The notes under the pieces are model-generated. The model worked only from the letters and a program-made list of their open reading frames with translations. It did no database searches and was not told the origin of the DNA. DNA of 22,898 nucleotides from UHGV virus genome UHGV-1634937. One strand, written 5' to 3'. The translations under genes and the position numbers were made by a program. Below are positions 19,926 through 20,286 of the stretch, in pieces; the first letter of the stretch is position 1, and every line of letters begins with the position of its first letter. The DNA is from a virus.

Positions 19926-20009
19926 CACCGCAACGGAAAGAGCATTCTTGGTGGACCTGTAGATTGGGATATGAACCCGTTACAGGAGAATGCTCTTACC
20001 TGTTACGTG
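19926..20009. repeat. long imperfect hairpin repeat (R1)
   Basis: Arms CACCGCAACGGAAAGAGCATTCTT and GAGAATGCTCTTACCTGTTACGTG; inner stem CCTGTA/TACAGG; loop carries GTAGATTGGGATATGAACCCGTTAC. Confidence 0.5.
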
Positions 20010-20186
20010 CTCCGTTTCGTGGAGCTAACGGCGGGTGATCGGGCCGCACCAGGCTGGACTTATTTCAGCGTTATGCTCATGCCAGAGAATCAAACTGTGA
20101 TGGTCGGTGCTGAACTCCGACACAGGGTTGTAGCAAGCCCCGCAAAGCGCGCACTACTGTAGTTGCGGCACATCAGCCTGTGCATT

Positions 20187-20286
20187 CACCACAATGTTGA
20201 GAACACTGGTTGTCACGCTGCAACGCAACATTTATTCGTAGATTGGGATATGACCCCGTTACGCCAGTGTTCTCAACGTTGTAGTG
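20187..20286. repeat. long hairpin repeat (R2)
   Basis: 23-bp arms CACCACAATGTTGAGAACACTGG and CCAGTGTTCTCAACGTTGTAGTG (2 mismatches); loop carries GTAGATTGGGATATGACCCCGTTAC. Confidence 0.55.

Follow-up and report, generated by a model that had tools for sequence, protein, structure and literature searches.

Minus-strand RNA hairpins in the ban-operon leader of a P1-like phage carry a motif that resembles the top of the initiator-tRNA anticodon arm

The window considered here, the whole 22,898-nt stretch of virus genome UHGV-1634937, is by sequence comparison that of a P1-like phage, with 98-99% identity to phages of that kind. According to the P1 and P7 records, the region of interest is flanked by the C1-controlled Pban/Oban and by ban and is on the same strand as the tRNA genes, and the hairpins R1 and R2 reside in this C1-repressed leader of the helicase (ban) operon. 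Read from the promoter, the leader runs in the order Pban, dicF-like region, R5, tRNA-Asn, tRNA-Thr, R4, S4, R3, R2, S2 and R1, with an STnc100-like sRNA after R1 and, later, trnI and ban. The features are as follows:

21529-21545, no strand assigned: C1 repressor operator AAATTTATTAGAGCAAT of Pban/Oban, start of the minus-strand transcription unit (sequence, and P1 and P7 records)
21320-21421, minus strand: dicF-like region as annotated in P1 (placed by alignment offset), with a terminator-like hairpin at 21352-21333
21061-21147, minus strand: R5, a complete fifth hairpin of the family (inverted repeat and fold)
20785-20860, minus strand, as the hairpins: tRNA-Asn(GUU) (tRNA prediction)
20707-20782, minus strand, as the hairpins: tRNA-Thr(UGU) (tRNA prediction)
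20617-20706, minus strand: R4, of the same arm family, beginning one base past the CCA end of tRNA-Thr
20492-20622, minus strand: S4, inter-hairpin unit 3' of R4 (similarity search)
20421-20491, minus strand: R3, with arms of the same family and another apical domain (repeats, fold, covariance model)
20187-20286, minus strand: R2, a three-way junction in which a 22-23 bp stem meets the motif hairpin (closing helix CGUA/UACG) and another small hairpin (repeats, fold)
20238-20262, minus strand: R2 motif copy, GUA-AC-GGG-GUCAUAU-CCC-AAUC-UAC as RNA
20096-20192, minus strand: S2, inter-hairpin unit 3' of R2 (repeat and closing-stem comparison)
19926-20009, minus strand: R1, a long interrupted helix of ~21 bp with the motif hairpin on top (closing helix CCUGUA/UACAGG; repeats, fold, covariation)
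19959-19983, minus strand: R1 motif copy, GUA-AC-GGG-UUCAUAU-CCC-AAUC-UAC as RNA
19812-19932, minus strand: S1, STnc100-like sRNA unit directly 3' of R1, with a U-run after its closing stem

The ARAGORN output for the window consists of Met(CAU), Thr and Asn only. The remnant of a decayed tRNA-Thr 3' end sits immediately 5' of R2, and other P1-like contigs have a real tRNA-Thr adjoining R2 or R1. S1 matches positions 31-147 of the STnc100 model RF02076 at 37.8 bits, below the gathering score of 47; the closing stem (GUGGUG/CAUCAC) and 5' hairpin layout of S2 are those of S1 and S4, the closing stem common to the S units covaries, and S4 is 98% identical to a piece of lambdoid pL leaders.

A preliminary description had drawn R1 and R2 as long imperfect hairpins with arms of about 23 bp and a nearly shared 25-nt loop motif. 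Both hairpins are present at the coordinates above. The arms of R2 are as described (20187-20209 with 20264-20286, 23 nt, 91% complementary), but those of R1 have a perfect core of 14 nt (19935-19948 with 19987-20000) that the fold extends to ~21 interrupted pairs, and R2 is a hairpin without being a simple one, since it folds as a three-way junction. The short inner stems of differing sequence, CCTGTA/TACAGG and CGTA/TACG, are legible in the DNA and also form in the folds. The two motif copies are identical at 24 of 25 positions, and a search allowing up to three mismatches returned only these 2 matches in the window (0.00 expected from 100 shuffles).

The arm family common to R1, R2, R3 and R4 was borne out by repeat comparison, as was its extension to 21129-21144; however, the latter is not the half-site that had been supposed, but one arm of the complete hairpin R5. 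The arms of R3-R5 read CACAAC...GTTGTG, those of R6 ACATTC...GAATGT and those of R2 CAAC...ATTGT. The motif is absent from some of the R hairpins, namely R3, R4, R5 and that of SfV. The apical domain of R3 occurs also in a Klebsiella lambdoid phage, where the arms are altered, and that of R4 contains the T-arm-like AGGGUUCGAAUCCCU, a T-arm-like hairpin being found in locus L261 as well.

Folding of both strands gave minus-strand energies for R1-R5 of -36.3, -49.2, -34.5, -42.7 and -48.8 kcal/mol, against -32.7, -43.0, -25.6, -36.4 and -33.6 kcal/mol on the plus strand, so that each of the five gives the more stable fold on the minus strand. The corresponding minus-strand z-scores are -5.0 for R1, -6.0 for R2 and -6.2 for R5, and 0 of 200 shuffles folded as well as either R1 or R2. 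No functional strand had been named in the preliminary description. Natural variation has the same polarity: among 36 natural variants of modal length 155 stem cells are G·U and 11 are A·C, and by a hand count over the pair tables Watson-Crick alternates with G·U at 23 variable pairs, as against 6 where the switch is to A·C (one-sided binomial p ~0.001, computed by hand). The functional strand is the minus strand, that of the tRNA genes.

Alignment with relatives shows covariation in both helices. The long stem is paired in 95% of cells and changed on both sides in 15 of 20 pairs among 25 hairpins from P1-like, lambdoid and Klebsiella phages, which were hand-picked because they pair; its covariation score is 0.50 against 0.23 for shuffled alignments (reached by 0 of 500), and slid controls pair at 37-51%. 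For the motif hairpin, likewise chosen by hand for pairing, all 8 pairs of the closing helix are changed on both sides over 17 contexts, with a score of 0.55 against 0.21 shuffled (0/500). GGG/CCC and U-CAU are invariant across these 17 contexts, an invariance that is partly by construction because many family members were retrieved by patterns in which the core was fixed. Applied to a MAFFT alignment of R1, R2 and R6, RNAalifold recovered the motif hairpin alone, missing the long arms because these are out of register between types, and the arm counts were therefore made on an arms-only alignment. A covariance model built from the arms alone scored R3 at 34.5 bits on the minus strand versus 15.2 on the plus strand and R1 at 14.1 bits, and missed R2 and R4; such poor scores arise because long apical inserts are heavily penalised, and the model was set aside as a basis for a census. 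The proposal that the repeats are structured RNAs is thus well supported by strand asymmetry, covariation and conservation far outside P1. The motif is nevertheless dispensable for a viable phage: phage Ro157c2YLVW is viable though 13 nt of its R1 motif are missing, SJ46 has an R2/R1 hybrid with poorly matched arms (~-19 kcal/mol), and an indel of ~196 nt is also present among viable relatives.

The conserved part of the motif is a core, AC-GGG-N-UCAUA-N-CCC-AAUC, whose closing helix may have any sequence. It is present in lambdoid early and late leaders, PY54 and Klebsiella phages, and also in environmental contigs from soil and groundwater and in one Bdellovibrionota genome; its commonest form, ACGGGCTCATAACCCAATC, accounts for 112 of the loci collected. 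Relatives are placed downstream of a tRNA CCA end, past a Q gene and terminator ahead of lysis genes, or in pL leaders. A scan of GTDB genomes that left the loop free (AACGGG-N7-CCCAATCTA) gave at least 120 matches, mostly due to chance because the pattern specifies only 15 bases; among the 120 listed, two had a closing helix of at least 4 bp, with loops UUCAUAU and CUCAUAA, and the only real matches listed were L211 (Yersinia alsatica) and L228. The covariance-model search that had been advised, run with Infernal/Rfam at gathering and E-value thresholds over the window and related loci, assigned R1 and R2 to no family beyond spurious miRNA-like hairpin matches. YrlA/bacterial Y RNA (RF02553) was considered and rejected, its only match (25.6 bits, gathering score 69) lying over real tRNAs and not over the hairpins. 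Searches of the searchable literature found no transcript, processing or binding data for the R1/R2 region and nothing relevant on the P1 ban operon, dicF, the P1 transcriptome or phage initiator-tRNA mimics. The motif is widespread and not specific to P1, and as an RNA motif it is apparently undescribed.

Its closest likeness is to initiator tRNA. The commonest family form, GGGCUCAUAACCC, has the same sequence as the E. coli initiator tRNA-fMet anticodon stem-loop; over 14 nt the form CGGGCUCAUAACCC agrees with the E. coli gene, and GGGCTCATAACCC falls in the E. coli tRNA-Met gene that has a median of four locations per genome. As in tRNA-fMet, a 7-nt loop with U33, a CAU anticodon and A37 sits on three consecutive G:C pairs. 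The GGG/CCC pairs are found in 17 of 17 contexts, with a single G·U, and in both R1 and R2; the U-CAU-A loop is found in R1, R2 and nearly all relatives, the commonest loop, CUCAUAA, being that of tRNA-fMet. The loops of R1 (UUCAUAU) and R2 (GUCAUAU) deviate from it at positions 32 and 38 only, where tRNA-fMet has C and A, respectively: at position 32 R1 has U and R2 has G, and at position 38 both have U. The mimicry is partial, because an asymmetric 5' AC / 3' AAUC internal loop stands in place of the two lower anticodon-stem pairs (27-43 and 28-42), and the full 5-bp anticodon stem is not found in the motif hairpin. Nor is there a cloverleaf here, unlike in tRNA-fMet; the motif hairpin stands on an unrelated helix.

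It had been suggested that the hairpins might be decayed tRNA-derived elements. The link to tRNA stands, in the match to the top of the tRNA-fMet anticodon arm, but a decayed whole tRNA does not, as neither ARAGORN nor Rfam gave a signal for one; cmscan at E-values up to 10 over 19700-21400 returned no tRNA match on R1-R5. The motif may also be read as a T-loop, GGG-UUCAUAU-CCC resembling G53-T-Psi-C-R-A-N-N-C61 bar one position. The fit to a T-loop is poor on the transcribed strand, and this reading was rejected: the A58 equivalent is U in R1 and R2 and the U54 equivalent is C, G or A in relatives. Since these equivalents are not kept while CAU is fixed, the constraint fits an anticodon loop and not a T-loop. 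The likeness to the top of the anticodon arm of initiator tRNA is suggestive of a tRNA mimic or decoy.

The explanation proposed, to which a probability of only about 0.4 is attached, is that R1 and R2 are minus-strand non-coding leader RNAs in which a processing or insulating stalk presents a mimic of the initiator-tRNA anticodon arm. Two layers make up such an RNA. The first is the long helix of ~20-23 bp, a family trait of temperate enterobacterial phage leaders, which comes after a tRNA or tRNA-like unit and before an STnc100-like unit. The second is the apical hairpin, with a closing helix of any sequence and a conserved core consisting of the 5' AC / 3' AAUC internal loop, the three G:C pairs and the 7-nt loop N-U-C-A-U-A-N. 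To judge from helix length and from analogy, the long helix would be a double-stranded stalk, most likely cut by RNase III: the predicted, covarying stems of 21-23 bp attain the approximately two-turn helix (~20 bp or more) of RNase III substrates. The stalk would keep neighboring tRNA and sRNA units apart and would free or stabilise the capped hairpin, itself a putative ligand or decoy for some cellular factor recognising the anticodon arm of initiator tRNA.

Both layers have counterparts in known systems. RNase III processing hairpins in polycistronic phage and rRNA/tRNA transcripts include the T7 early sites, the rrn stalks, the metY-nusA hairpin and that of DicF maturation. Here likewise irregular helices of ~20 bp stand between the units of a polycistronic RNA, and the stalks begin 1 nt past a tRNA CCA and end at the start of the next unit; unlike those hairpins, they carry a conserved apical cargo, and there is no sequence relationship. 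For the apical hairpin, the thrS operator mimics tRNA-Thr and phage pseudo-ToxI repeats neutralise ToxN. The likeness lies in a short hairpin that copies the recognition part of a tRNA or antitoxin RNA, in tandem copies and in expression by a phage, and the difference is that no cognate toxin or synthetase gene is found near the hairpins here.

A narrower version, which must be considered doubtful, is that the phage makes a tandem decoy from early and late leaders that, once trimmed from its stalk, titrates or distracts a host or plasmid factor attacking or reading tRNA-fMet, a VapC-type PIN toxin being the leading candidate. VapC toxins of Salmonella and Shigella cleave tRNA-fMet within the anticodon stem-loop, and recognition by VapC toxins depends on both sequence and structure (PMC7180214). 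If the decoy reading were true, the hairpins together with the phage tRNA genes would form an RNA-based counter-defence island. Mimicry, if functional, would represent a new class of tRNA-fragment mimics in phage-host biology, with possible roles in counter-defence against anticodon nucleases or in interference with initiation factors or synthetases, and would help to explain the build-up of tRNA and sRNA genes in such leaders. If it is not functional, the annotation is still corrected, a testable RNA family is still defined and the 5' boundary of STnc100-type loci is still extended. P1 is among the best-studied phages, yet its annotation gives two dubious ORFs, upl and plp, for ~1.5 kb of the ban-operon leader, a stretch shown here to be a series of structured RNAs under selection at the RNA level.

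That the R and S units form one gene, the hairpin serving as the 5' domain of a tandem STnc100/PasD-type Hfq-dependent sRNA and the motif as its seed or protein site, is an unlikely alternative, although the arrangement lends itself to it. The STnc100-like unit lies directly 3' of R1, the S units have their covarying closing stem in common, and in SfV a full-length Rfam STnc100 match begins in the R apical loop and takes in the 3' arm, which corresponds to the 5' end of the model. STnc100 and PasD are moreover prophage sRNAs near Q and lysis genes, and the hairpins share their niche in temperate enterobacterial phage leaders. However, the complete hairpin and the motif fall outside Rfam model RF02076, and no STnc100 match was obtained on R1 or R2 in an Rfam scan at E-values up to 10. 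Against a single gene also stand the occurrence of the motif hairpin apart from any R or S unit in the environmental contigs and the Bdellovibrionota genome, and that of R hairpins after tRNAs, sometimes lacking the motif (R3, R4, R5, SfV). An identity of 13-14 nt to the tRNA-fMet arm would be unexpected for a seed.

It is improbable that the hairpins are non-functional debris, i.e. decaying duplicates of a tRNA with its trailer hairpin, together with recombination scars, kept by recent descent. Debris of this kind would account for the decayed tRNA-Thr 3' end beside R2 and the real tRNA-Thr abutting R2 or R1 elsewhere, for the T-arm-like pieces in R4 and L261, and for the tolerance of deletions and hybrids. 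Selection on the RNA is nevertheless indicated by the asymmetry of G·U over A·C and the compensatory changes in both helices, and by the keeping of the core in unrelated stems and distant taxa.

A cis-acting antitermination signal of the nut, rrn or put kind, aiding read-through of the terminators in a long leader, appears quite improbable. Its parts would be the small hairpin as boxB, the 3' arm UGCUCUU(U/A) as boxA and the GU-rich GUUGUGGUG as boxC. The context is suitable in every case, being the terminator-containing leader of a long operon (the dicF-like 21352-21333, after Q/tR', or pL), and the 3' arms of R1 and R3 read UGCUCUUUCC and UGCUCUUACC, which resemble boxA. But the boxA-like letters are not kept in R2, R4, R5, R6, SfV or ST64B, and they are base-paired within a covarying helix; as a nut/rrn antiterminator the hairpins were rejected, the conserved single-stranded boxA (GCUCUU[U]A) being lacking and the string being confined to R1 and R3. 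The SfV motif hairpin comes after, not before, the terminator-like hairpins, and five copies within one leader also speak against such a signal. The sparsely annotated HK022 RefSeq region, examined as a put RNA model, contained no motif or R-like element.

An element acting as DNA, whether MITE, folded recombination site like the attC of integrons or linker for modular exchange, is very unlikely. The boundaries of indels and exchanges in P1-like phages do fall at hairpin edges, inside the arms and inside the motif, and the earlier suggestion of recombination sites holds to this extent, as natural-variant crossovers inside arms and motif; the arms, bulged spacer and variable center are also superficially attC-like. 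However, the strand-asymmetric G·U pattern suits RNA and not a DNA element, and all copies seen are in operon leaders on the transcribed strand. An integron attC site (RYYYAAC/GTTRRRY boxes with IntI) was rejected on arms that vary in R6 and R2, the core boxes AAC/GTT being missing from R6, and no integron integrase was apparent in the ORFs and annotations inspected around these loci. A MITE was rejected on the lack of target-site duplications visible in the flanks, on the restriction of the copies seen to operon leaders on the transcribed strand and on the strand asymmetry of mismatches.

Mechanical ORFs do cover the repeats on the plus strand (19833-20162 and 20163-20582), and the P1 GenBank record annotates their equivalents as upl and plp. 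The preliminary remark that no plausible ORF covers the hairpins is consequently wrong to the letter, but it is probably right in substance because these ORFs have no significant Pfam match, contain frame-incompatible indels in relatives and receive no PGAP CDS; upl and plp are probably spurious. That they are real genes and the repeats a repeated peptide, VDWDM[N/T]PL, is hardly credible: the ORFs exist, are annotated in P1 and RCS47, and do translate the motif into that peptide, but no conserved reading frame, homologues or domains were found for them, their single Pfam match is sub-threshold (E = 0.05), the codon-position GC pattern of neighboring genes is absent, PGAP (NCBI) places no CDS there in the RefSeq P1-like plasmids among the matches listed (at least 80% of the query in 400 records), relatives have frame-breaking indels such as the 13-nt deletion and the ~196-nt indel, ORF length and boundaries vary among relatives, and the substitutions keep RNA pairing on the opposite strand.

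The 1.8 kb around the hairpins is 98-99% identical to the P1-like phages vB_EcoM-813R1, RCS47 and P1. The P1 record shows the homologous stretch flanked on one side by the C1-controlled promoter-operator Pban/Oban and on the other by ban, which encodes the phage's DnaB-like helicase; all these features are on the strand that corresponds to the minus strand of the window; in the P7 record tRNA genes are under control of the same operator. The long hairpins R1 (19926-20009) and R2 (20187-20286) are RNA elements with the orientation of the tRNAs and form part of a C1-controlled operon leader. 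Minus-strand order of features:

21529-21545: C1 operator, the first feature
~21320-21421, minus: dicF-like region of the P1 annotation, mapped onto the window
21352-21333, minus: strong terminator-like hairpin ending the dicF-like region, TGCCCATCTTCGGGTGGGCG followed by T7
21147-21061, minus: hairpin R5, next after the dicF-like region and upstream of tRNA-Asn
between R5 and R4, minus: tRNA-Asn, then tRNA-Thr
20706-20617, minus: hairpin R4, beginning one base past the CCA end of tRNA-Thr
between R4 and R3, minus: inter-hairpin unit S4, with 98% identity to lambdoid pL leaders
after S4, minus: hairpins R3 and R2, inter-hairpin unit S2 and hairpin R1, in that order
19932-19812, minus: STnc100-like unit directly 3' of R1 (RF02076, 37.8 bits against a gathering score of 47)
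after the STnc100-like unit, minus: two ORFs, a tRNA with a CAU anticodon (trnI), and ban

Because the terminator-like hairpin is only ~170-200 nt downstream of Pban, the tRNAs, hairpins and ban need read-through or another promoter. At 18734-19778 (minus) is a 275-aa SPFH/Band 7 protein (Pfam E = 1e-30), together with a membrane-like ORF of 78 aa; P1 carries tciA, tciB and tciC at this place, and RCS47 and Ro157c2YLVW resemble the window here, unlike P1. The ~115 nt directly after trnI (18515-18632, minus) share 88% identity with the beginning of the mEp460 pL leader, have no Rfam family match at E-values up to 1, and to judge from this likeness represent another non-coding leader module common to both phages. 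Already known are the region with its tRNAs, the "dicF-like" label, and the prophage sRNAs STnc100 and PasD; as far as the libraries searched show, the complete hairpin family and its RNA-level covariation have not been described.

R1 and R2 are long imperfect hairpins, as the preliminary description held: the R2 arms are 23 nt and 91% complementary, and R1 has a 14-nt perfect core within a longer interrupted helix. The 25-nt motif they share (19959-19983 and 20238-20262) occurs in two copies identical at 24/25 positions, with none expected in shuffles, and its inner stems (CCTGTA/TACAGG, CGTA/TACG) read as described in both sequence and folds. R2 does have long paired arms but folds as a three-way junction rather than a plain hairpin, and the supposed half-site at 21129-21144, although an arm of the family, belongs to the complete fifth hairpin R5 (21061-21147, minus; -48.8 kcal/mol, z -6.2). 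The suggestion that these are structured RNAs is borne out by strand asymmetry and by compensatory changes in relatives. When both strands are folded, the minus-strand RNA is the more stable for 5/5 hairpins, R1-R5. With only the arms aligned, 25 hairpins from P1-like, SfV, ST64B, mEp460 and Klebsiella phages have 95% of long-stem cells paired (37-51% in slid controls), a percentage inflated by the choice of sequences for being hairpins, and both sides changed in 15/20 pairs, compensatory changes at aligned positions being free of that inflation; the covariation score of 0.50 (0.23 in shuffles) was reached by 0/500 shuffles. R1 and R2 are very probably selected structured RNAs of the long-hairpin family.

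This family extends well beyond P1: its long-helix hairpins follow tRNA clusters downstream of Q and before the lysis genes in Klebsiella lambdoid phages, stand in the pL leaders of SfV, ST64B and mEp460, and follow Q and a terminator in PY54-like elements. The apical domains differ. The apical part of the SfV hairpin is only a 7-nt loop, R4 and the IMG/VR contig L261 have T-arm-like hairpins, and R1, R2 and R6, a third type with arms unrelated to R1/R2, carry the motif. The L261 hairpin, upstream of TTGTGGTGAATGCGGCTCAGCGCAC, pairs perfectly over a 19-bp stem, and its apical domain of 95 nt includes two T-arm-like hairpins, CUGGUUCGAUUCCAG and GUCCGUUCAAUUCGGAC.

The motif is a discrete hairpin, as shown by scanning for its core with the loop letters varied, consisting of a closing helix of any sequence, 5'-AC, GGG, a 7-nt loop N-UCAUA-N, CCC and AAUC-3'. 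The closing helix is CCUGUA/UACAGG in R1, CGUA/UACG in R2, UGAAUA/UAUUCA in R6, CUGAUG/CAUCAG in Klebsiella, GGUGGGGCGGUA/UGCCGCCCCACC and GCCCAGUA/UGCUGGGC in environmental contigs and AACAAUUA/UAAUUGUU in groundwater. Over 17 contexts it has changed on both sides in 8/8 pairs, and the motif covariation score of 0.55 (versus 0.21) was reached by 0/500 shuffles; GGG/CCC and U-CAU are invariant in these contexts, partly by construction, the search patterns having fixed the core. Freeing the whole loop gave at least 120 matches, and among those listed only two have a closing helix of at least 4 bp, with the loops UUCAUAU and CUCAUAA. The commonest core, ACGGGCUCAUAACCCAAUC (112 of the collected loci), is a second motif-bearing hairpin in SfV-type pL leaders.

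An E. coli tRNA-Met gene found at a median of four places per genome, which we take to be the initiator (metZWV/metY), has precisely GGGCUCAUAACCC as its anticodon stem-loop. Three consecutive G:C pairs adjoining the CAU loop are the hallmark of initiator tRNA. Since the equivalents of positions 32 and 38 vary across the motif family (C/U/G/A and A/U/G/C) while U33, CAU and A37 are almost fixed, the constraint is of anticodon-loop type; a T-loop would have U54 and A58 fixed, which differs from the pattern seen. The resemblance is partial, because the two lower stem pairs of the tRNA-fMet arm are replaced by a conserved AC/AAUC internal loop. Both long helix and apical hairpin are selected, the latter being sequence-conserved and copying the upper part of the initiator-tRNA anticodon arm. 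The motif has no match among Rfam families, and a literature search found no paper describing it; as far as the libraries searched show, this widespread hairpin is the chief undescribed item and the most interesting result, to be placed among tRNA-mimicking or tRNA-derived structured RNA modules of phage leaders.

In a Bdellovibrionota MAG (JACKAH010000002.1, ~5690-5835, motif orientation) a 144-nt long-stem element with a 17-bp outer stem (-62.8 kcal/mol) bears the apex CGUA-AC-GGG-CUCAUAA-CCC-AAUC-UACG and is followed after ~140 nt by a co-oriented dnaB gene, paralleling P1, where the hairpins are in the leader of the dnaB homologue ban. In two metagenome contigs (L386, L387) the motif hairpin is just downstream of an HNH endonuclease gene, and the L386 copy is also ~45 nt upstream of a Toprim-domain (primase-like) ORF.

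The ~20-23 bp helix begins 1 nt past the CCA end of a tRNA and stops where the next unit begins. It would serve as a double-stranded stalk for processing and insulation, with RNase III the most likely nuclease, by analogy with T7 early-mRNA sites, rrn stalks and DicF maturation. The capped hairpin may be a ligand or decoy for a factor reading the tRNA-fMet anticodon arm, with the 30S P site plus IF3, MetRS and anticodon nucleases as candidate partners. The tRNA-fMet anticodon stem-loop is cut by Salmonella and Shigella VapC toxins, which recognize sequence as well as structure (PMC7180214). A processing stalk presenting an initiator-tRNA anticodon-arm ligand or decoy in the ban-operon leader is given a probability of roughly 0.4. 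That Ro157c2YLVW and SJ46 are viable although neither has an intact R1 motif counts against an essential role.

It is conceivable, if rather unlikely, that R and S together form one sRNA gene with the motif as seed or protein-binding site. The S units (20096-20192 and 20492-20622, minus) share the layout of Rfam STnc100 positions 31-147: GCRCA-GGCUGA-UGYGC forms the 5' hairpin, CCGG-AGAUCAGCA-CCGG the 3' hairpin, and a common 6-7 bp closing stem covaries (GUGAUGA/UCAUCAC, GUGGUGA/UCACCAC, GUGGUGG/CCACCAC, GCGGUG/CACCGC in the inter-hairpin alignment A3); in the 19812-19932 unit the closing stem precedes a run of U. The full-length STnc100 match in SfV has its start inside the loop at the apex of the long hairpin before it; of that helix, the Rfam model accordingly covers just the 3' half. 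The 34 nt at 19810-19843, in the 3' hairpin region of the STnc100-like unit, match CRISPR-annotated E. coli chromosome sequences at 34/34; by this match, spacers against this P1 region appear to be present in E. coli CRISPR arrays.

Alignment of six P1-like genomes reveals modular exchange. P1, D6 and SJ46 have an R4/R3 chimera with the crossover in the shared arm, P1 lacking the S4 segment by deletion between these arms; SJ46 has an R2/R1 hybrid with the crossover within the 25-nt motif; in P7 and Ro157c2YLVW R3 directly follows tRNA-Thr. In Ro157c2YLVW 13 nt of the R1 motif are missing, and a ~160-nt insert with a small ORF sits exactly at the 5' edge of R2; in D6 and P7 the S2-R1 segment is exchanged for another unit, tRNA-Ser and a different hairpin. 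The S4 region (20489-20625) is 97-99% identical to a lambdoid pL (early-left) leader segment of mEp460 and several Stx-converting phages. A real tRNA-Thr adjoins R2 or R1 in other P1-like contigs, intact next to R2 in three (L017, L022, L023). Just 5' of R2, the RNA of 20287-20312 (minus), GGCCGGAACCGUAACCGGCAC, resembles a decayed T-arm and acceptor end of tRNA-Thr. These exchanges among P1-like genomes indicate an array built of units, each a tRNA or tRNA-like/sRNA unit plus a long hairpin. That the hairpins are non-functional debris of such duplications is improbable beside the covariation of helix and motif.

A nut/rrn-like antitermination signal is more doubtful still, the boxA-like letters of R1 and R3 being base-paired and not conserved. 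A DNA-level element (MITE, attC site or linker) has very little probability beside the natural variants of the motif-bearing hairpins, taken from IMG/VR contigs and collected phage loci (41 distinct sequences of types R1, R2 and R6). Stem cells of the 36 modal-length variants hold 155 G·U against 11 A·C, and, counted by us from the pair tables, Watson-Crick/G·U switches account for 23 variable pairs and switches to A·C for 6 (binomial p ~0.001, hand-computed); a transition at a Watson-Crick pair yields either equally a priori, and the G·U excess therefore reflects strand-specific constraint.

Coding is the least probable reading. Plus-strand ORFs over R1-R3 are annotated as upl and plp in P1 and RCS47, contrary to the earlier statement that no plausible ORF covers the repeats, but four lines of evidence argue that they are non-coding: they have no significant Pfam match (one sub-threshold, E = 0.05) and do not show the codon-position GC pattern of neighbouring genes; their length and boundaries vary between relatives; a 13-nt deletion and a ~196-nt indel lie within them in viable relatives; and PGAP places no CDS here in any RefSeq P1-like E. 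coli plasmid among those listed, 400 of the records having query coverage of at least 80%. The repeated peptide VDWDM(N/T)PL is the plain translation of the RNA motif.
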